NCBI GenBank assembly: GCA_035524895.1
Contig: DATLFI010000047.1
Coordinates: 28 to 64,027, forward strand
Length of the DNA stretch: 64,000 nucleotides
Reading direction: 5' to 3'
DNA from: Thermoanaerobaculia bacterium
GTDB taxonomy: Bacteria; Acidobacteriota; Thermoanaerobaculia; Multivoradales; Multivoraceae
The position numbers and the translations under genes were made by a program. Positions 2,771-10,425 of this stretch are shown piece after piece. The notes below the pieces were generated by a model that saw only the letters and a program-made list of their open reading frames with translations, searched no databases and was not told the DNA's origin. Each line of letters starts with the position of its first letter. Within the stretch, counting starts at the first letter, position 1.

Positions 2771-3145
2771 ATGAACCGTCCCACCACTCCCACGCTGCTC
2801 GAGGGCCTGAGCAAGGATCGCCTCGTCGAGCTCGGCCGTCGTTTCGAGGTCGCGTTGTGCGCCGCGGACACCGAGGCCGACCAGATCCGCGCGCTGCAAC
2901 GCGCCTCACGGCTGTCGTTCGCGTCGCTGCTCGAGGTGCTGGGTGGAGACGAGCTGCGCGCCGCCTGCCGGCGCCACGATCTGCCCTTGCAGCGCTCGGA
3001 AACTGGCCGGGTTCAGCGGCCGGAAAGCGACGTCCAGCCACGCGTCGACCAGGCGCTCGGCCAGTTCGGCTGGACGACCACGAAGACCTGGAACAGGGAA
3101 CAGCCAGGAGTGCTTCGGGTCCAAAATGCGGAGTCCGCCCGATGA
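2771..3145 (+). CDS. Hypothetical small protein
   Basis: 124-aa ORF with strong GC3 bias (MNRPTTPTLLEGLSKDRLVELGRRFEVAL...); no recognisable domain. Lies between the MntA start and a lipoprotein gene end. Confidence 0.3.
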   Translation: MNRPTTPTLLEGLSKDRLVELGRRFEVALCAADTEADQIRALQRASRLSFASLLEVLGGDELRAACRRHDLPLQRSETGRVQRPESDVQPRVDQALGQFGWTTTKTWNREQPGVLRVQNAESAR

Positions 3146-3352
3146 AGGCGCTCGCCTCGCTCGTCGGGCTCGACGCGACGATCTTTGCTGCCGGGGCCCT
3201 GGAAGACGAGGATGTCGACGAGACCTGTGCCGTGGTCGACCAGGATTCGCCGTGCGCGCCGGGGCCGAGCGGCCGAACTACGCGTCGACGTCGTGCCCGA
3301 GCTCCAACCAGTTCCGTGACTTCGGGCCGGCTTCCGGTCGAGAGCGAGTTGT

Positions 3353-5257
3353 TCAGTACTCGAAACCCGGCATAGGTGCCGTCAGATCTACCGGCTCGCA
3401 GTCCTGCGTCGCGCCGCTTCCGGCCGCGATCACGCCGACCCAGACCTCCTCGGGAAGGGAGTCGTCGGCGGCCGTCGCTCTCGACACCTCGTAGACGAGG
3501 CGATAGTCGAGCTCACCCGTGCAGGTGGGACCGCCGGTGAAGTAGCCAGCGAGGACCGGTCGCGGCCGCGCCTGGCCCGGCAGCTCGGGGATCTGGTACG
3601 CCTCGCCCCGCATCTGCCCCAGCTGCTCTCGCGCCCGCCCGAGGATCTCCTCGCTCGGCGGCAGGGACACGTCGGTGAACGACAGGGCCAACCGGCGAGC
3701 GTGCGTAGCGAAGGCTTGGAGGGACCCATCGGCGTTGAGCGAGAAGTCCAGGTAAAACCCCGGACCGACCGCGCCTATGCACTCTCCCTCGACGTTCACG
3801 CACAACGGCAACTTGATGCGCCAGGCCTTGCGAAAGCGCAGGTAGCTGTCCTCGTTCCGGCCGAGGTCGACCATCGGAGTCTGGTCGATGTGAACGGACT
3901 GCACCCGCAGGTCCTCGAGCGACTCGACGAGGTCGAAGCAGGGTGGCGCTCCTACCGAGGCAGCTCTCGGGGTCGTAGAGCACGCGAGATCGGCGACGCG
4001 ATCCAACTCCCGGCCCAGGAGCTCCTTCTCCTCCGGCAAGAGGTCTTCCCAGCACTTCTCGAGATGCTCGCCGGCACCGCTTGCCCAAGCAGGCAAGCCG
4101 TCCACCAGGCAACGCAGGCTCTCGGGAACCGGGCTCGCTGCCAAGGGCAGGGGCGGCGTGACACTGCGGACCCACGCCAGGCGCCCCTCGCCGACGGTGA
4201 CCCGGCCCCGCGGCGCGGTGCCCGGAGGCGCCGCGTCGCGCAGCGCCGCGAGGAGGGGCTCCGCATCGAGCGCGAGCCCATCGCTCGCCACGTCGAGGCC
4301 AGGGAGCTGTCTCGGCTGGTCGCCCGGATCGAGGAGCGGTGGCACGAGCCCCCCGGTCGCAGCCACCGAAAAGCTAGAGACTTCACTCGCGGGAACGACG
4401 AACTGCAGGTAGGCGAAGCTGCTGCCGGGGTCCTCGCTCTTCACGGTGACGTCGTAGAGGGGCAGCGCTTGGAGGTCGGGCGCGGGCTCGGCGAGGTCGA
4501 CGTCGCCTTGGGAGATGCAGGCCCCGACGCGCACCGTCGGGAAGCCATAGGACATGGCGTGGGTATAGACATCGGCAAGGGCGCGCCCCTTCACCGTTTC
4601 GTCGATCAGGAGCTCGACCGGGTACACGGTATGGACGTCGCTCGAGCCGCAAACGGGCGTCGAACCCGCGCACAGCACTCTCATCGAGGATCCGAACGGG
4701 CGCGCGGCAGCGCTCTCGGCGCCCAGCCAGAAGGCGAAGGCGTTGGTTCCCTTCTCGGCGTCGGTCGCCGGGTCGTACTCGTGGGCCTGGCCGCGCGGCG
4801 CGTGCCGCATCAACTGACACGAGCACAACCAGGAGTAGCGATGGCGCGAGTGGTCGAGGCGGAGCTCGGCCACAGGAACGACGACCTTCTTCTCGAGACG
4901 GAACTTGCCCGCTTCGCCGTGGCCGAAGTGCACATGGAGGGGGGCCGACTCGATGCCGTGTTGAGGATCACCGTCTTCGGTGGTCCAGTACGACACCTGC
5001 CTCTGCCGAATCGTGGGATCCTCGTGGAGGGCATTTGCGACACCAGCGAGGACGGAGGGCGACTCCTTGGTGGCGGTGTAGAGCGACGCCGCCGTCGCGC
5101 TCGAACTTTCGTCACGCGAGACCGCGTATTCGAAGGCGACAGCGCCAACGGTCGAGATCGTCGAGACTCTCGAGGGCGCGCAAGCAAGCAGCGCCGCGGC
5201 TACGAAGCTCGCGATCGCCAGCAGCGACGCTGCCTGCCTTGAGTGCGACCCGGACAT
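3353..5257 (-). CDS. Hypothetical Cys-rich lipoprotein (third gene of the CHAT operon)
   Basis: Signal/lipobox LLAIASFVAAALLAC; 634 aa with no recognisable domain; begins 11 nt after the upstream lipoprotein gene's stop. Confidence 0.5.
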   Translation of the reverse strand: MSGSHSRQAASLLAIASFVAAALLACAPSRVSTISTVGAVAFEYAVSRDESSSATAASLYTATKESPSVLAGVANALHEDPTIRQRQVSYWTTEDGDPQHGIESAPLHVHFGHGEAGKFRLEKKVVVPVAELRLDHSRHRYSWLCSCQLMRHAPRGQAHEYDPATDAEKGTNAFAFWLGAESAAARPFGSSMRVLCAGSTPVCGSSDVHTVYPVELLIDETVKGRALADVYTHAMSYGFPTVRVGACISQGDVDLAEPAPDLQALPLYDVTVKSEDPGSSFAYLQFVVPASEVSSFSVAATGGLVPPLLDPGDQPRQLPGLDVASDGLALDAEPLLAALRDAAPPGTAPRGRVTVGEGRLAWVRSVTPPLPLAASPVPESLRCLVDGLPAWASGAGEHLEKCWEDLLPEEKELLGRELDRVADLACSTTPRAASVGAPPCFDLVESLEDLRVQSVHIDQTPMVDLGRNEDSYLRFRKAWRIKLPLCVNVEGECIGAVGPGFYLDFSLNADGSLQAFATHARRLALSFTDVSLPPSEEILGRAREQLGQMRGEAYQIPELPGQARPRPVLAGYFTGGPTCTGELDYRLVYEVSRATAADDSLPEEVWVGVIAAGSGATQDCEPVDLTAPMPGFEY

Positions 5258-5268
5258 CGTCGCTGGTC

Positions 5269-6378
5269 TCAACCGCCTAGGAAGAGCGACGGGCAAATCG
5301 GGCCCAACTCATCGCCTCCCTCGCCCACGCAGATCTCGACTTCGCCCCCAGCCGGCACCGTTGTCGGCACGTTGGTGAGATTGAAGTACCAGCGCCCAAC
5401 AGCCAGGTGGCCGAGGGCATGGACCTCGAGTGGCTCGGGCAGGAAGGTGACCCCGCCCGTGCCGTTGATGATGGCGAGCTCGACGCCACCGCTGGCGTCG
5501 GGCTCGATCGTCAAGGTCCGTGCGCCAACGGACGCGTCGCTGGGCTGAAGCAGGACCTTCACGGGCCCCGACACCTGGCCGACGCTGACCGTGGTCAACT
5601 CGGGCATCTCGACGGCACCTTGGCAAGCTCCGCCGCCCACGCTGAGGCCGTACAGAGTCTTCATGCTGGCGTCGTGGGCTTGAACCGACTCCAGTCGGAT
5701 GTCCCCGAAGGGGAGATGGACACGGCTGGCGAGCACGCCCATCCAGGCGTCCTCGTTCCACGTTCCCAACAGACGCTGGTCCAAGGAGTAGGCGCTGCGC
5801 CGGCTCGGGTCGCTGGCGTGAGTCGCGGCGGTCCCGAAATGGGCGGCGACATCGGGGAATCGCACGATGGCGGTCTGTTCGTCCAACTTCGAGTTGGGGG
5901 TGGTCGGAGAGACCGGCTTTGGGAGGACGACCTCGTAACGCGTGATCTTCGTGCGTCCGGGCCCGCTGGTCGGCCCGTACTCGACCAGAGGCACCACCAG
6001 CCGTCCCGGATATCCAGCGACGTTCCCGCGAACGACAGCCAAGCTGGCGAAGTGAGCTGAATAGAAGTGTTCAACATCGTTCATGTAACGGTCGATCCCT
6101 CTTGGGAACTTGGGGCTGCCGGCATCCGTGTAGGCGTCGGTCGTCGCCTTGTTGTAGTCCGCCTTCGGCAGGAGCGCCCAGTAGTCGCCATCTTGGCCTG
6201 CGAGAGCGACCAGACCTTCGAACCGCACCGTCAGCTCGACCGGCCGCGGAGTCGAGGTGTCCTGTGTCCTGGCATCGGGGCTTTGCTGGCACGAGCTCGT
6301 CGCAACGACGACGAGCACCGCGCAGCCTGCGAGCGCCCCATGGAGCGTGAAAGTCTTCCTTCGTTCGATGGTAGTCAC
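5269..6378 (-). CDS. Hypothetical lipoprotein (second gene of the CHAT operon)
   Basis: N-region RRK followed by LHGALAGCAVLVVVATSSC; GTG start overlaps the CHAT gene's TGA (GTGA) and is preceded by GGAGGGAGG; no recognisable domain. The longer ORF start is at 6393. Confidence 0.5.
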   Translation of the reverse strand: MTTIERRKTFTLHGALAGCAVLVVVATSSCQQSPDARTQDTSTPRPVELTVRFEGLVALAGQDGDYWALLPKADYNKATTDAYTDAGSPKFPRGIDRYMNDVEHFYSAHFASLAVVRGNVAGYPGRLVVPLVEYGPTSGPGRTKITRYEVVLPKPVSPTTPNSKLDEQTAIVRFPDVAAHFGTAATHASDPSRRSAYSLDQRLLGTWNEDAWMGVLASRVHLPFGDIRLESVQAHDASMKTLYGLSVGGGACQGAVEMPELTTVSVGQVSGPVKVLLQPSDASVGARTLTIEPDASGGVELAIINGTGGVTFLPEPLEVHALGHLAVGRWYFNLTNVPTTVPAGGEVEICVGEGGDELGPICPSLFLGG

Positions 6379-9305
6379 TGTTCCTCCCTCCACCCTTCAG
6401 ATGTCGTTTCTTCGAACAACCCAAGGTGCCACACGTCTGCGTCCCTGGCGGTTTCAGCCCACCGCTCCTCGAGGGCGCCCCGCAACGCGTCGAAGCTATC
6501 GGCGCCCTCACCGAGTCGCCGATGAAACGCGGCGAAGACCTCCGAAGAGGTTGCATCGTCGAGATCCCCCGGCGACGCGATTACCGTGGCATAGCCCTTC
6601 GCGAGCAGCTCCGCGGCGAGGCTGCCGCCGGCCTCCCAGGCGCTCCCGGCGCCGCGGCACGAGGCCAGTACGGCGAGCTGCCTGGCGTCGGGCCGCGCAT
6701 CGGGCATCGACGCCGCCGGCCACAGCTCGAACGCGCGAGCCTCGCCTGCCGGCGGGCTCAGCACCAGGCTCGGGCCCGGGTCGTACTTGCCGAGCACCGT
6801 GCCGTGCGCCGCGAGGTGGATCACGTCGGGGGCGCCCCATCGCTCGACCACGCCGGCAACGGTCGCCTCCGGACCCACCAGGCTCTCGTGCTCCGCATAG
6901 AGCTCGACGATCGCCGAGGCCTCGCGGCGGGCGTGTTGCAGCCTTGGCAACGCCGCCTGGTCACCGAGCTGCGGGTCGGCGACCACCAGGAGCGTCTCGC
7001 TGCCGCGGGCGCGCTTGTCGCGGTTCGCTGCCATTGCCCTCTCCAGGAGCCAGACCGCCGGTACCACGCTGACCCGACGTCGCTGGTCCCTCACGAGGAG
7101 CGAGTACAGCGCTTCGGGCTCGTCCAATCCGTCGAGCACCAGGTAAACATCGCGATGCGGTGCCACCTGCTCGTCCAGCCAAGCCGCGACTGCATCGTGC
7201 AGCGCCGGCCGCCCCGACTGGTCTGTCTCAGAGACGGACAGGGTCTGGAACTTCTCGCTCGTGCTGCCACGATCGATCCAGAGGTGTGCTTCGGCACTGG
7301 CGCGCTCTTGCCATACCTCCAAGACTGAGGCCGCAGCGTTCTCGCCAAGAGCCGCCGCGTCGGGGTCCCGGGGGATGGCACTTCCCGGTGCCAGCCGCGT
7401 CAGCGGCAGCCGCGCGGCATCGAGCACCGCACCGGCGCGCGCAGGCAATCCAACGCGCAACAGCAGAGCGGATTGACGCTCGGCGAGGAGACGATAGCGG
7501 CCGGCGAGCCCGACTCGCGCCACCGCATCACGGGTCGCTACGAGCCGGCGCGCCCACGACTGCAAGGAGACGTCGAGCAAGCGAATGGCCTCGTCGAGGT
7601 CATCCGCCGCCAAGAGCTGCCCGATGCGTTCGTTCTCCAGGTCGTAGAGGAGCTGCAGGTCTGGCTCGGGCTCCCGCATGACCTGCTCGATCGTGTCGTC
7701 GAGCAGACGCCGGCTCTCGGCCGGCGCCGCGAGCTGCCGTTCGAGCCGAGCGCCGGCCACGTCGATCAGCCGACCGAGCCGCGGACGATTGGGGTGACCC
7801 GCGGGAAGCGCGCTGGCGCTGGCGCGCGCCAGATCGAGATCGGCGCGAGCGAGCTCCGTGTCCCCGCGATCGAGCGCCACATGGACGGCGCCGCTGGCGC
7901 GGAGGAGCCTGACTTGCGGCGGGAGGTCCACGGCGTCTTCGCCGAGGAAGTGACGCGCCTGCTCGGCATAGGGCGAGTCGCGCAGAGCGGCGACCGCCTC
8001 GTCGAGCACACTCTGACGACGCTCGGGCGACTCGATGAGGAGCAGGCCGCGCAGGCCTTCGGCCCGGTAGCGCCAAGCGGGCTCCCAAGCTCCCGCCAGC
8101 TCGTGGTTGCGCGCCTGGAGGCTGCCGAGATACGCGGCCAGGCCGAGCTCCCCGAGCTCGATCATCCGGCGGCGGCTCGCCTCTGCAAGGAGCGTCGCGG
8201 CCTGGAATTCTCCCGCCAACGTCTCGACCAGCGCGGCGATCCAGTCGGCTCGCGCCTCGAGATAGCGCCAATCGCGCGCGCGAGCCAGGTCTCGCACCGA
8301 TCCAGCCCGCATCCGCGCCGCGGAGAAGTCCCGCGAGTAATAGGCGCAGATCGTGCGCTCCAGACCAAACCAAGCAGCGAGCGTCGCGATCGCGGCCGAC
8401 TCGCGCTCGGCGCTCGAAAGCTCGGCGGATTGGCAGTCCAGGCTGAAACGGTCCACCCGCGCACGACGCAAAGAGCCGAGCACGCCCTCCAAGGAAGCGC
8501 CGCGCGCCGCGTGGCGCTCCAGCTCCGCCAGCAGCTCGTCCCAGTAGCGATCGCCCCCCTGGCCGAGAACGACCTTCGCATCCTCGCGCAGGCCCTGCCA
8601 CGCCGCGCTGCCGGGCACCGGCACGGCGGCCTCGGTGTCGCCGAGGAACAGAGCGTGCTCCAGGCGGCTGCGCGCTCGAGCCGCGGGCGCGTCGTGAGCG
8701 AGCTCCCGCTCCTGTTCGTCGAGCCAGGACTCGAGCTCTACCGCCCAGGGGTCGCTGGTGTCTCCGTCAGCAGCCGCCAGCTCCAGAGCGTCTCGGCGCG
8801 CCTCCTGGAACCGACCGAGCAGAGCCAGGCATGTCGCTCGATCGAAGAGCGCCGCCTCGCGCATGTCGCTGACCTCGACGAGCTCGTCGAGCAGCGCGAG
8901 AGCCCGGATCAGATCGAACGGATCGCCGCCGCGCTCCGCATGAGCGGCGTAAGCCACGCTCAGGTTGAGCCGCCCGGCCGGATCGAGCTCGCCCGCAGGT
9001 GCCCCGCGCCGAATCGCTCGGGCAATCGCGTCGGTCGTGCCCAAAGACACCGCGAGTGCGATCTCGTCGGCAGCAGAGAGCCGGCCCCGGGCCAGGACAT
9101 CGGCCAACCGGCCGCGCGTCGTCAGCGCGTCCCGAGCGCAGAAGATCGACGACTGCTCGCGCTCGCAAGGCTCGTGGCCCGTCTGCCCAGCCACACGGAG
9201 GCGCAGTGGACGGTGCTCGGACAGGTACTGCGAAGCGGTCGTCCCGCGCTCGTGGCAGCCGGCAACGCTGAGCCCGGCAACGAGAGCCGCACGGCCAATC
9301 CACAT
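6375..9305 (-). CDS. TPR-repeat / CHAT-domain (caspase-like) lipoprotein
   Basis: C-terminal CHAT signature (VIHLAAHG ... LAVLASCRGAG, His/Cys dyad); long helical TPR-like N-terminal region; start MWIGRAALVAGLSVAGC (alternatively MDTAD at 9356). The ORF portion upstream of 9305 is Arg-rich noise. Confidence 0.65.
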   Translation of the reverse strand: MWIGRAALVAGLSVAGCHERGTTASQYLSEHRPLRLRVAGQTGHEPCEREQSSIFCARDALTTRGRLADVLARGRLSAADEIALAVSLGTTDAIARAIRRGAPAGELDPAGRLNLSVAYAAHAERGGDPFDLIRALALLDELVEVSDMREAALFDRATCLALLGRFQEARRDALELAAADGDTSDPWAVELESWLDEQERELAHDAPAARARSRLEHALFLGDTEAAVPVPGSAAWQGLREDAKVVLGQGGDRYWDELLAELERHAARGASLEGVLGSLRRARVDRFSLDCQSAELSSAERESAAIATLAAWFGLERTICAYYSRDFSAARMRAGSVRDLARARDWRYLEARADWIAALVETLAGEFQAATLLAEASRRRMIELGELGLAAYLGSLQARNHELAGAWEPAWRYRAEGLRGLLLIESPERRQSVLDEAVAALRDSPYAEQARHFLGEDAVDLPPQVRLLRASGAVHVALDRGDTELARADLDLARASASALPAGHPNRPRLGRLIDVAGARLERQLAAPAESRRLLDDTIEQVMREPEPDLQLLYDLENERIGQLLAADDLDEAIRLLDVSLQSWARRLVATRDAVARVGLAGRYRLLAERQSALLLRVGLPARAGAVLDAARLPLTRLAPGSAIPRDPDAAALGENAAASVLEVWQERASAEAHLWIDRGSTSEKFQTLSVSETDQSGRPALHDAVAAWLDEQVAPHRDVYLVLDGLDEPEALYSLLVRDQRRRVSVVPAVWLLERAMAANRDKRARGSETLLVVADPQLGDQAALPRLQHARREASAIVELYAEHESLVGPEATVAGVVERWGAPDVIHLAAHGTVLGKYDPGPSLVLSPPAGEARAFELWPAASMPDARPDARQLAVLASCRGAGSAWEAGGSLAAELLAKGYATVIASPGDLDDATSSEVFAAFHRRLGEGADSFDALRGALEERWAETARDADVWHLGLFEETTSEGWREEQ

Positions 9306-9826: not shown

Positions 9827-10195
9827 TCAGAGCGCGTGGAGGACGAGCCCGGGATCGATCCTGCGGAGATCGTCGACGTCGCCGCTGACCACCACCGCGT
9901 CCTCCGCGAAGCGCGCGCTGACCGCGACGCTGGCGTCGACGATGTCGCGGGTGCGGCTGATGCCGCAGAGCACGCCTGTAGCCTTGGCAGCGCTCTCGTC
10001 GAGCGGATCGACCTCGGTGCGGTGGTCCGCGACCAGCGCCGCGAGGCGCGCTTGCCGCGCGCCGTCGCGCCACACCTGCGCCAGGACGCCGGCGGGCACG
10101 ATCAGTCTCTCATCACCGCGGCGGATCGTCTCGAGCAACAGGACCATCCGCCGATCGCCGCGCTCGAAGGCGATCAGGGCGCCCGCGTCGAGCAC
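9827..10195 (-). CDS. vapC: PIN-domain toxin (VapC-like)
   Basis: PIN acidic residues (VVLDAGALIAF...IVPAGVLAQVWRDG...TRDIVDASVAVSA...VVSGDVDDL); GTG start overlaps the antitoxin's TAG. Confidence 0.6.
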   Translation of the reverse strand: MLDAGALIAFERGDRRMVLLLETIRRGDERLIVPAGVLAQVWRDGARQARLAALVADHRTEVDPLDESAAKATGVLCGISRTRDIVDASVAVSARFAEDAVVVSGDVDDLRRIDPGLVLHAL

Positions 10196-10425
10196 TACCG
10201 CCCGAGCACGCTGCGCACCCACGAGCGATCCTCCCGGCTGGGCGGTCCGATCTCGCGCCGCAGAGACGCGAGCACTTCGTCGAGACGGTCGGCGCGCAAC
10301 CGGCGCTCGACCGCTTCGCAAACCAGCGAGCTCACCGACTCGGCGCGACCCGCGGTCACCTCGTCGCGAAGCTGATCCGCGAGATCGCTCGGCAGCGACA
10401 CGGTCACCTTCTTGGTGGTCGCCAT
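10195..10425 (-). CDS. vapB: Ribbon-helix-helix antitoxin (VapB/CopG-like)
   Basis: 76 aa, MATTKKVTVSLPSDLADQL RHH-like N-terminus; immediately upstream of and overlapping the PIN gene. Confidence 0.55.
   Translation of the reverse strand: MATTKKVTVSLPSDLADQLRDEVTAGRAESVSSLVCEAVERRLRADRLDEVLASLRREIGPPSREDRSWVRSVLGR

Follow-up and report, generated by a model that had tools for sequence, protein, structure and literature searches.

A conserved CHAT-protein operon in Acidobacteriota with two partners of undescribed families and likeness to the periplasmic part of DdvA

What does a caspase-like protein with a lipoprotein signal do in one operon with two further putatively exported proteins, and does this arrangement recur outside the contig on which it was noticed? 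The question is raised by three minus-strand genes, here called A, B and C, in a stretch of 64,000 nucleotides (the window) whose contig is named Thermoanaerobaculia (Acidobacteriota) at NCBI. The myxococcal origin suggested in the initial annotation is wrong. The genes, taken from open reading frames and their translations, and the junction between the first two, read directly from the sequence, are as follows.

Gene A, positions 6375 to 9305 including the stop (coding 6378 to 9305; stop 6375 to 6377), minus strand: 976 amino acids.
Gene B, positions 5269 to 6378 including the stop (coding 5272 to 6378), minus strand: 369 amino acids, GTG start.
Gene C, positions 3353 to 5257 including the stop (coding 3356 to 5257), minus strand: 634 amino acids.
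Translational coupling of A and B, positions 6375 to 6387, minus strand: GGAGG at 6383 to 6387, GTG start at 6376 to 6378 and the overlapping TGA of A at 6375 to 6377.

The public annotation of this contig has the same three proteins, and codon-position GC is coding-like in all three genes (GC3 0.80 to 0.84, GC2 about 0.5). The TGA of A and the GTG of B form a GTGA overlap behind the GGAGG, and C starts 11 nt after the stop of B, which bears out the coupled three-gene operon described earlier; a promoter and terminator scan of the operon gave no signal above shuffles. Each of the three N-termini carries a signal peptide or lipobox as read by eye, and signal peptides or lipoboxes are also present on the A-, B- and C-family proteins of other triads. 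By the lipobox pattern used, [LVI][ASTVI][GAS]C closing a signal peptide, A and C fit and B is atypical, again by eye. The N-terminus of A reads MWIGRAALVAGLSVAG up to the lipobox Cys, that is, a 16-residue signal peptide and then the Cys.

The features of A on which its assignment depends are these.

CHAT (caspase-like) domain of A, positions 6447 to 7079, minus strand: Pfam limits; aligns with the CHAT segment 834 to 980 of DdvA.
Catalytic residues of A, minus strand: His834, codon 6804 to 6806, and Cys883, codon 6657 to 6659; invariant alignment columns.
Signal peptide of A with lipobox V-A-G-C (Cys17), positions 9255 to 9305, minus strand: sequence reading.

The match of A to CHAT (PF12770), a domain of the caspase-hemoglobinase fold, is well above the Pfam cut-off (E 1.6e-19; 70.9 bits, where 24 would suffice), and His834 (HLAAHG) and Cys883 (LASCRG) stand in columns that are invariant among five A-family members, so that the CHAT domain with an intact His/Cys dyad proposed from the first reading is upheld. 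Both positions fall inside the stretch that the family profile aligns to DdvA 834 to 980. Moreover, A aligns over its full length with a family of proteins of about 1000 residues composed of a membrane anchor, a helical scaffold and a CHAT domain with the dyad intact, and at the position of the A signal the members of this family show either a lipobox or an N-terminal stretch of strong hydrophobicity. The TPR-like region claimed for A stands at the level of the family, whose profile matches consensus TPR proteins, but not for A by itself, which is sub-threshold (TPR_16, E 0.0077). A word-index search had returned four distant CHAT matches only and made A appear a near-orphan, a view that was later overturned.

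The closest characterised relative of this family is not among the systems with which it had been compared. The A-family profile A2, which includes A, matches Myxococcus xanthus DdvA (PDB 8rot, 8rot_B) at E 3.5e-28 in two separate stretches, the scaffold (99 to 313) and the CHAT domain (834 to 980), while A alone is too divergent to be matched to DdvA by phmmer. As judged at the level of the family profile, A is homologous to the periplasmic part of DdvA, and the earlier comparison with Craspase, CBASS-associated and HetF-type proteases is less apt than this one, which had been missed. To our knowledge, DdvA is the only periplasmic TPR-CHAT protein studied so far. It is a transmembrane anti-sigma factor encoded in the ddvS-ddvA operon (PDB 8rot/8rw5), together with MXAN_7287 and a gene for a 'C25-type peptidase', and it regulates a defence regulon of CBASS and CRISPR-Cas and has been proposed to sense a periplasmic phage protein; its protease activity and its triggering signal are unproven (PMC11506125). 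The likeness extends to a domain of about 900 residues, predicted to be extracytoplasmic in A, with helical scaffold or TPR followed by CHAT, to the canonical His/Cys dyad, and to motifs common to DdvA and the A family (FNRA/LWNRS and GWaEEAR/GWRSEAR). Where DdvA has a zinc anti-sigma domain and a transmembrane helix, A begins with a lipoprotein signal. The zinc anti-sigma motif (HxxxCxxC) is absent from A and from its upstream reading frame, and it is present in four relatives (L012, L013, L029, L033). Relatives also have a conserved juxtamembrane motif, ExRLTGGF. A further difference from DdvA is that no ECF sigma factor, CBASS or CRISPR-Cas adjoins the operon, the upstream neighbour of A being VapBC and not an ECF sigma gene. 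Zinc anti-sigma motifs or sigma-like ORFs were found in related loci and none at this operon.

The operon is real and conserved. Every C-family locus with enough flank keeps the order A-family, B-family, C-family, which makes eight loci beyond the window (L063, L064, L065, L068, L069, L072, L074, L075), where HMM E-values lie between 1e-61 and 1e-150 for the A-family gene, between 6e-9 and 1e-127 for the B-family gene and between 1e-118 and 1e-188 for the C-family gene; the top B values belong to genes used to build the B HMM, and the independent middle genes of L074 and L075 score 2.8e-29 and 6.1e-9. Two further loci (L067 and L073) have a B-family gene directly upstream of a C-family gene at a contig end. 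The co-occurrence on which the initial annotation had staked its proposal is therefore found elsewhere, with the dyad conserved and with B and C belonging to no housekeeping family, and its description of an operon for a putatively exported CHAT protease and two co-conserved partners of unknown family holds. Other A-family loci keep a B-like gene and have, as third gene, a peptidase of the S8, C11, C39-like or M64-like kind; a peptidase-family match was obtained for 10 of 47 downstream ORFs scanned at 22 A-family loci. The DdvA-like loci of Myxococcota follow the same downstream-peptidase pattern, and the small lipoproteins 3' of their DdvA-like genes gave no match to HMMs of B, of C or of d1, the B-like proteins of other A-family loci. 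The literature yielded no paper that links CHAT to Acidobacteria or to a subtilase operon. The protease scaffold is of a known kind and the triad, like the families of B and C, is undescribed; since a DdvA-type scaffold had already been described, the term 'novel' was right for the triad and the two families and not for the scaffold.

In agreement with the first reading, neither B nor C has a recognisable domain by Pfam, NCBIfam or PADLOC. The signal of B ends in VVVATSS before Cys30, with T-S-S-C as an atypical lipobox (by eye), and a Pro/Thr-rich tether follows the Cys. An HMM of seven middle genes from C-family triads, built without B, matches B over residues 19 to 343 (E 6.7e-20, 67.6 bits; best decoy 0.56), and BLASTP of B finds the middle genes of L063 and L068 (2e-10 and 1.6e-9). 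The same HMM also matches d1 genes of other A-family loci (2e-5 to 3e-4), and the middle genes match the d1 HMM at 2e-11 to 4e-9. These profile matches indicate that B is a member of a predicted beta-rich B/d1 family encoded directly 3' of an A-family gene at many loci, with HMM support for 20 or more of them. A word-index search that returned B itself only had made it look like an orphan, until the middle-gene HMM overturned this.

B could be linked to d1 only through the middle genes of the C-family triads, which are closer to it. The first d1 HMMs, built from more distant A-family genome loci, miss B (about 1 bit), hhalign of the first d1 alignment against B covers the first strand only (E 0.026), and a block-chain test of B against d1 scores 79.5 with a decoy maximum of 74. 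A PDB sequence search with the d1 family gave no match. We also considered that the small protein beside CHAT and S8 proteases might be a bacterial gasdermin, an idea rejected with PADLOC blank for B, C and d1 and with the proteins predicted to be exported.

The conserved part of C, from which its family was recognised, is the following.

N-terminal domain of C, about residues 92 to 326, positions 4280 to 4984, minus strand: region matched by all 18 homologues; alignment.

The N-terminus of C is of the lipoprotein type, AAALLA before Cys26 with lipobox L-L-A-C (by eye), and the protein contains 14 Cys residues. C itself has no match in Pfam (even at E 10, DUF6345 included), in NCBIfam or in PADLOC, and searches of PDB sequences with C and with the C-family profile found none. 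An exhaustive search of the whole library recovered 18 distant homologues (E 7e-12 to 1e-3), overturning a word-index search that had returned only C itself and left it an orphan. The domain contains the motifs FGHG (His113), WLCSCQLMRH (Cys147, His152) and RVLCAGS (Arg193, Cys196), followed by Asp229 and Cys247; Cys147, His152, Arg193, Cys196, Asp229 and Cys247 are invariant in the family alignment, and 2 of the 18 homologues have Glu in place of the GHG histidine. Eight of the 18 match DUF6345 (PF19872) over the GHG to SC region, most or all of them below the gathering score of 26.9 bits (five viewed in detail score 16 to 22 bits, and the best E among the others is 3.6e-6). The alignment thus points to C as a member of a DUF6345-related family that occurs almost only as the third gene of the A-B-C triad; DUF6345 itself appears in the literature in one proteome list only.

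Clan CD cysteine peptidases, among them families C25, C11 and C14, show a strand ending in His-Gly and then a hydrophobic strand ending in Ser/Ala-Cys, and the motif order of the C family fits this pattern. In this respect the family resembles gingipain (C25) and clostripain (C11), although C itself has no profile match to them; one C relative matches Peptidase_C25 at E 0.23, and in L004 the gene position of C is occupied by a C11 peptidase (clan CD, clostripain). The possibility that C is a second CHAT domain was rejected, as neither BLASTP of C against A nor hhalign of the two families gave a significant match; the hhalign overlap is 16 columns on the catalytic His strand only (E 0.048, not significant). 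The place of C in the slot of the S8, C11, C39-like or M64-like peptidases, together with its Gly-His-Gly and Ser-Cys motif pair, suggests that it is probably a cysteine peptidase.

Our preferred reading, to which we give a probability of about one half, is that the operon encodes a sigma-less, lipid-anchored envelope protease module of the DdvA type, with B as a bound partner or substrate and C as a putative clan-CD-like cysteine peptidase. In other TPR-CHAT proteases a bound partner maintains the inactive state: securin for separase, Csx30 for Craspase and, for DdvA, its own linker. The logic proposed for A and B is that of these systems, in which a resting TPR-CHAT protease cleaves a specific partner; however, separase and Craspase (Csx29 with Csx30) are cytoplasmic, monomeric and controlled by RNA or the cell cycle, whereas A is predicted to be exported, and the operon has no homologue of Cas7-11, Csx30 or securin. 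By this analogy A would probably be kept inactive in the envelope until a trigger lets it cut a partner bound to it. B, being co-translated, is the best candidate for that partner, whether as ligand, inhibitor or substrate, and C may be activated by A or may act on A. Lacking an attached sigma factor, the module would then act by envelope proteolysis and not through transcription. The roles of B and C are inferences, since structure predictions of both gave no usable model (single-sequence pLDDT 35.8 for B and 33.8 for C). Moreover, at other A-family loci 11 d1 proteins lack a signal peptide while the A protein beside them is anchored in the membrane, which a simple bound-partner model does not readily accommodate.

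Among the alternatives, the one that survives best, though we consider it unlikely, is that the operon serves maturation of secreted proteases or nutrient acquisition with no signalling or conflict role. In that case A would mature, or control the quality of, an exported zymogen encoded next to it (C here; S8, C11 or other peptidases elsewhere), and B would be a chaperone, adaptor or pro-peptide-like inhibitor. Such a role would suit a third gene whose exported peptidase product changes family between loci, the extra protease genes near the triad of L072, the predicted export of every part and the lack of a match to any known defence family. It is at odds with the highly specific, switch-like behaviour of characterised TPR-CHAT proteases and with the anti-sigma domains and sigma factors to which relatives have this module fused or linked, and the module of M. 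xanthus controls a defence regulon (PMC11506125). The DdvA regulon argues for sensing rather than digestion.

That regulon, and the proposal that DdvA senses a phage protein (PMC11506125), also speak for a second alternative, a stand-alone anti-phage or abortive-infection system lying in a defence island, in which A would respond to a periplasmic phage component and damage to the envelope by C would follow. The flanks of the operon bear on it as well.

HepT and MntA-type nucleotidyltransferase pair, positions 1830 to 2713 (HepT 1830 to 2240; MntA 2237 to 2713), minus strand: Pfam HepT-like 6.5e-28, Polbeta 1.4e-18.
VapBC-like pair, positions 9827 to 10425 (PIN 9827 to 10321; 76-residue ORF 10195 to 10425), minus strand: Pfam PIN 5.1e-5; RHH antitoxin by eye only.

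The two toxin-antitoxin modules noted at the outset, of type II, are indeed there, HepT, the MntA nucleotidyltransferase and PIN by Pfam and the VapB-like 76-residue ORF by eye. A local GC dip to 0.65, an integrase or toxin-like gene near some related loci and a HicB-like antitoxin ORF upstream of one of them point the same way. Nevertheless, toxin-antitoxin modules are common in any accessory region, many related loci have neighbours of a metabolic type (purF, bshC, lpxD, bamA), and PADLOC-DB 2.0, searched up to E 1 with A, B, C and three d1 proteins, gave no match. We hold this reading to be quite improbable, and the 'defence island' layout, which had been drawn from the toxin-antitoxin flanks alone, is not sustained.

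It is also conceivable, though we regard it as more doubtful again, that A is the sensor of an ECF sigma/anti-sigma pathway whose other two members are encoded elsewhere. Relatives give this some substance, with a separate zf-HC2 and TPR gene just upstream of the A-family gene in L017 and L029 and a sigma-like ORF adjoining the triad in L073. ECF54 sigma factors are reported with carboxypeptidase, subtilase and CHAT proteins in their neighbourhoods, an account given at the Pfam-domain level only and with no mention of the B/d1 family (PMC8999054), and related A-family loci likewise join CHAT with Peptidase_S8 and sigma-like or zf-HC2 genes. The window differs from these neighbourhoods in that no sigma factor was found in it and C, the third gene, does not encode a subtilase. 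Against a split pathway, tblastn of the relatives' sigma-like and anti-sigma-like ORFs on the 64-kb window reached E 0.079 at best, which is not significant, and most C-family triads have no sigma gene nearby. Last, the contact-dependent or interbacterial toxin-delivery system that the initial annotation had put forward is very improbable, for it has nothing in its favour except that the proteins are predicted to be exported and two are of unknown family, whereas secretion-system, Rhs, polymorphic-toxin and immunity genes are absent from positions 1 to 12.8 kb of the window and from about 30 related loci, and lipoprotein anchors favour retention in the cell's own envelope.

The sigma-less envelope protease module thus remains our preferred account of this operon, and it may be part of something larger. 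We would tentatively suggest, as a possibility with the odds against it, that an A-family protein, its B-family partner and an interchangeable exported peptidase form a widespread and undescribed extracytoplasmic switch, known from 20 or more loci, mostly of Acidobacteriota. Its transcription-coupled version would be the DdvA-type anti-sigma factors, the B family would be the missing ligand or substrate that sets off CHAT, and the window would hold the sigma-free form, with the C family as a new cysteine-peptidase output.

For DdvA it is still in question what triggers it, what it cleaves and what the two genes downstream of ddvA do (PMC11506125). Across the window and about 30 related loci, the scaffold-CHAT protein is almost always accompanied by one particular family, that of B, the third gene is commonly a peptidase of variable family, and the anti-sigma domain is an optional add-on. 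This makes the B-family proteins and the neighbouring peptidase candidates for the partner that CHAT binds or cuts. The analysis shows that DdvA-like anti-sigma factors occur in Acidobacteriota too, and it newly defines two families of putatively exported proteins. If the roles proposed here are right, bacteria would possess an envelope-located caspase-like cascade.

In this study, we show that the CHAT protein A is encoded together with a middle gene product, B, and a third gene product, C, by coupled minus-strand genes, whose products are identical to the public gene calls of the same contig. The genes and the neighboring toxin-antitoxin features are as follows:

3356-5257, minus strand: gene C, ORF of 634 aa
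5272-6378, minus strand: gene B, ORF of 369 aa with a GTG start
6378-9305, minus strand: gene A, ORF of 976 aa
Flanking operon: HepT, MntA-type nucleotidyltransferase and PIN protein, identified by Pfam
Overlapping the PIN gene: 76-aa ORF resembling a PIN antitoxin by appearance

As the initial annotation had described, the A stop (TGA) and the B start (GTG) overlap in GTGA, and 11 nt separate the B stop from the C start; the GGAGG lies 4 nt upstream of the GTG. A scan of the operon found no promoter-like or terminator-like sites breaking up A-B-C, and GC at the three codon positions (A, 0.79/0.53/0.82; B, 0.66/0.50/0.81; C, 0.70/0.52/0.84) is typical of coding sequence in a 70% GC genome. Export signals, read by eye, are present on all three proteins; the claim that all are lipoproteins fits A and C, whose N-termini read as a signal peptide and a lipobox (VAG|C and LLA|C, respectively), while the putative lipobox of B (TSS|C) is atypical. 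Gene B lies in a GC dip: window positions 5501-6500 have 0.647 and the flanking sequence has 0.70-0.74, which together with the two toxin-antitoxin modules fits an accessory region. A 183-aa ORF of the public record (2943-3494, plus strand), possibly a spurious call, shares about 140 nt with the 3' end of gene C, and a 542-codon ORF at 205-1833 on the minus strand (codon-position GC 0.86/0.69/0.61) is not coding-like in that frame.

The A-B-C triad is, by sequence comparison, a conserved module. The three families strictly occur together and in a fixed order, and the window genes are translationally coupled. At eight loci besides the window (L063, L064, L065, L068, L069, L072, L074 and L075), a gene of the A family (E 1e-61 to 1e-150) is always followed by a gene of 323-361 aa and then by a C-family gene, giving nine distinct triad loci with the window. 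Two further loci, L067 and L073, are cut by a contig end and still contain the middle gene; the sole exception, L071, is a short contig with a response regulator upstream and a C-family protein bearing an additional adhesin-like N-terminus. Each of the three window proteins is about 24-33% identical to its counterparts in the other triads, indicating that the module is old or fast-evolving. At L063 (1313-5623), the A-family and B-family ORFs form one 1437-codon frame with no stop between them, through either a true gene fusion or a mistake in the assembly; the B part retains a Met and a lipoprotein signal of its own. Genes for Trypsin_2 and Peptidase_C11 lie 3-6 kb downstream of the complete triad at L072 (12798-15826), so that the module has additional exported proteases in its vicinity.

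The CHAT domain of A was confirmed (Pfam, E 1.6e-19). With A as query, a word-index search gave just four distant relatives, each about 1000 aa long. A aligns with these from end to end and the catalytic His and Cys do not vary, so that the dyad noted in the initial annotation is conserved. Scanning GTDB species genomes with a three-sequence A-family profile yielded 56 loci, the majority in Acidobacteriota (Thermoanaerobaculia, Vicinamibacteria and Blastocatellia) and a minority in Cyanobacteriota, Gemmatimonadota and Chloroflexi; Myxococcota gave partial matches to the CHAT part only. A hydrophobic N-terminal segment or lipobox was clear in 17 of the 19 members checked. A family profile that includes A matched PDB 8rot/8rw5 (991-aa "CHAT domain-containing protein", E 3.5e-28) in two separate stretches, the scaffold (99-313) and CHAT (834-980), although A as a single query was too divergent to match. 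These entries are the Myxococcus xanthus anti-sigma factor DdvA, which spans the membrane once and has a dimeric scaffold/TPR-CHAT periplasmic part of about 900 residues; its CHAT dyad adopts a resting state, and its signal and substrate are unknown (PMC11506125). Sequence similarity thus shows A to be a homolog of the periplasmic part of DdvA with the dyad intact.

DdvS/DdvA is the closest known system and shares scaffold, predicted location and operon layout with the window module. However, A is predicted to be anchored as a lipoprotein and lacks the cytoplasmic zinc anti-sigma domain (ZAS) and transmembrane helix of DdvA; moreover, the window operon has no sigma factor, tblastn found no ECF sigma homolog in the window, and no CBASS or CRISPR-Cas adjoins the operon, unlike DdvS/DdvA. 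Since two defining features, the zinc anti-sigma domain with its transmembrane helix and the adjacent sigma factor gene, are missing, A should not be filed as a DdvA-like anti-sigma factor and is instead a sigma-less relative. Elsewhere in the family, HxxxCxxC and a transmembrane segment precede the TPR-CHAT part in the ORFs of L012, L013, L029 and L033, sigma-like ORFs lie upstream at L010, L013 and L033, and two loci have a separate gene just upstream of the A-family gene:

L017, 6497-7384: zf-HC2+TPR gene
L029, 6608-7537: zf-HC2+TPR gene

The only groups named for DdvA-like anti-sigma factors are Myxococcota and Comamonas (PMC11506125), and the zinc motifs and zf-HC2+TPR genes in Acidobacteriota show that such factors extend beyond them. 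A conserved juxtamembrane motif, R-x-h-E-x-R-[LI]-[TS]-G-G-F-x-Y-x-P, lies about 20-60 aa past the membrane anchor in 11 of the 24 members examined (L002, L008, L010, L012, L013, L017, L019, L020, L021, L029 and L035). DdvA has RTLEARVTY at about 109-117, within the linker of its proposed CHAT self-cleavage, and A has the motif only weakly (RPLRLRVAG).

Neither B nor C matched Pfam, NCBIfam or PADLOC, in keeping with the earlier statement that they have no recognizable domain. In most full-length A-family loci, a protein of 250-330 aa without a Pfam match, here called d1, is encoded directly downstream on the same strand, and iterative HMMs joined 11 of these into one set. B shares their motif order. 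B was not significant against the d1 HMM or by hhalign, and its block-chain score (79.5) exceeded all 1040 decoys (maximum 74). With B left out, seven middle genes were combined into an HMM, which matched B over nearly its full length (E 6.7e-20; best decoy 0.56) and the d1 proteins of L008, L012, L013 and L019 (2e-5 to 3e-4). In the reverse direction, the d1 HMM matched middle genes at 2e-11 to 4e-9. The independent middle genes of L073, L074 and L075 matched the middle-gene HMM at 1e-31 to 6e-9. These matches place B, as judged by homology, in a conserved family of partners to DdvA-like CHAT proteins, overturning an early word-index impression of B as an orphan. Eleven d1 proteins (L002, L004, L006, L007, L008, L011, L012, L013, L019, L020 and L021) start at the conserved first strand with no Sec/Tat signal, adjoin a membrane-anchored CHAT partner and fit none of the readings proposed below well; those of L029 and L033 have Tat-like lipoprotein signals. 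In Myxococcota, a DdvA-like gene is directly followed by a gene for a 160-240 aa lipoprotein (L028, L041, L043, L044, L046, L049 and L051). These lipoproteins form at least two groups and do not resemble the B/d1 family by HMM, so that the slot for a partner persists with another occupant.

C likewise seemed an orphan by word index until an exhaustive HMMER search found 18 distant homologs (E 7e-12 to 1e-3) of 550-840 aa, sharing an N-terminal domain and mostly having a hydrophobic signal-like N-terminus by eye. Their motifs are hhFY-GHG..s-W and RYLWm-SC-VMAHGP; Cys147 and His152 are invariant, and the GHG His is Glu in two homologs. This order, strand-His-Gly followed by strand-Ser/Ala-Cys, is the pattern of clan CD peptidases (caspase, gingipain, clostripain). 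Profile searches support it weakly: Pfam DUF6345 matches 8 of the 18 relatives, mostly or entirely below threshold, exactly over the GHG...SC region; one relative matches Peptidase_C25 (E 0.23), hhalign against CHAT gave a single, non-significant match at the catalytic His strand (E 0.048, 16 columns), and the family has no PDB match. None of the 56 A-family genome loci has a C-family gene. Behind d1, these loci often encode a peptidase, whose family varies (Peptidase_S8 at L005/L006, L008 and L019; Peptidase_C11 at L004; C39-like at L012; M64-like at L017), with matches in 10 of 47 downstream ORFs, and C occupies this slot. Myxococcota DdvA-like loci have the same habit (trypsin-like + FHA, S8, C39), the last ddv gene encodes a "putative C25-type peptidase" (PMC11506125), and a review notes CHAT and subtilase genes in the neighborhood of ECF54 sigma factors (PMC8999054).

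We assume, with a probability of about 0.5 for the joint reading and by analogy, that A is a resting envelope protease which, upon a trigger, would bind and cleave a partner, much as in separase-securin and Craspase-Csx30 and in the proposed DdvA self-cleavage. B, being co-translated with A, would be the likeliest partner, and C, a putative cysteine peptidase, may be activated by A or act on A, the output being envelope proteolysis and not sigma-factor release. Maturation of secreted proteases for nutrition is a possible, clearly less probable role. A stand-alone defense system is unlikely: the defense setting of the initial annotation finds support in the toxin-antitoxin flanks and the DdvA precedent and in nothing else, and PADLOC was negative. 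Slightly more doubtful still is a split pathway with its sigma factor encoded elsewhere. Contact-dependent toxin delivery, also raised initially, is very improbable, as no evidence for it was found.

With regard to novelty, the A scaffold is already known from DdvA, described in the only paper on a periplasmic TPR-CHAT protein in the literature searched (PMC11506125), and the module is not categorically new; the B/d1 and C families, of which that literature makes no mention, are undescribed. The triad offers a specific clue, open to testing, to the targets of DdvA-type CHAT domains.
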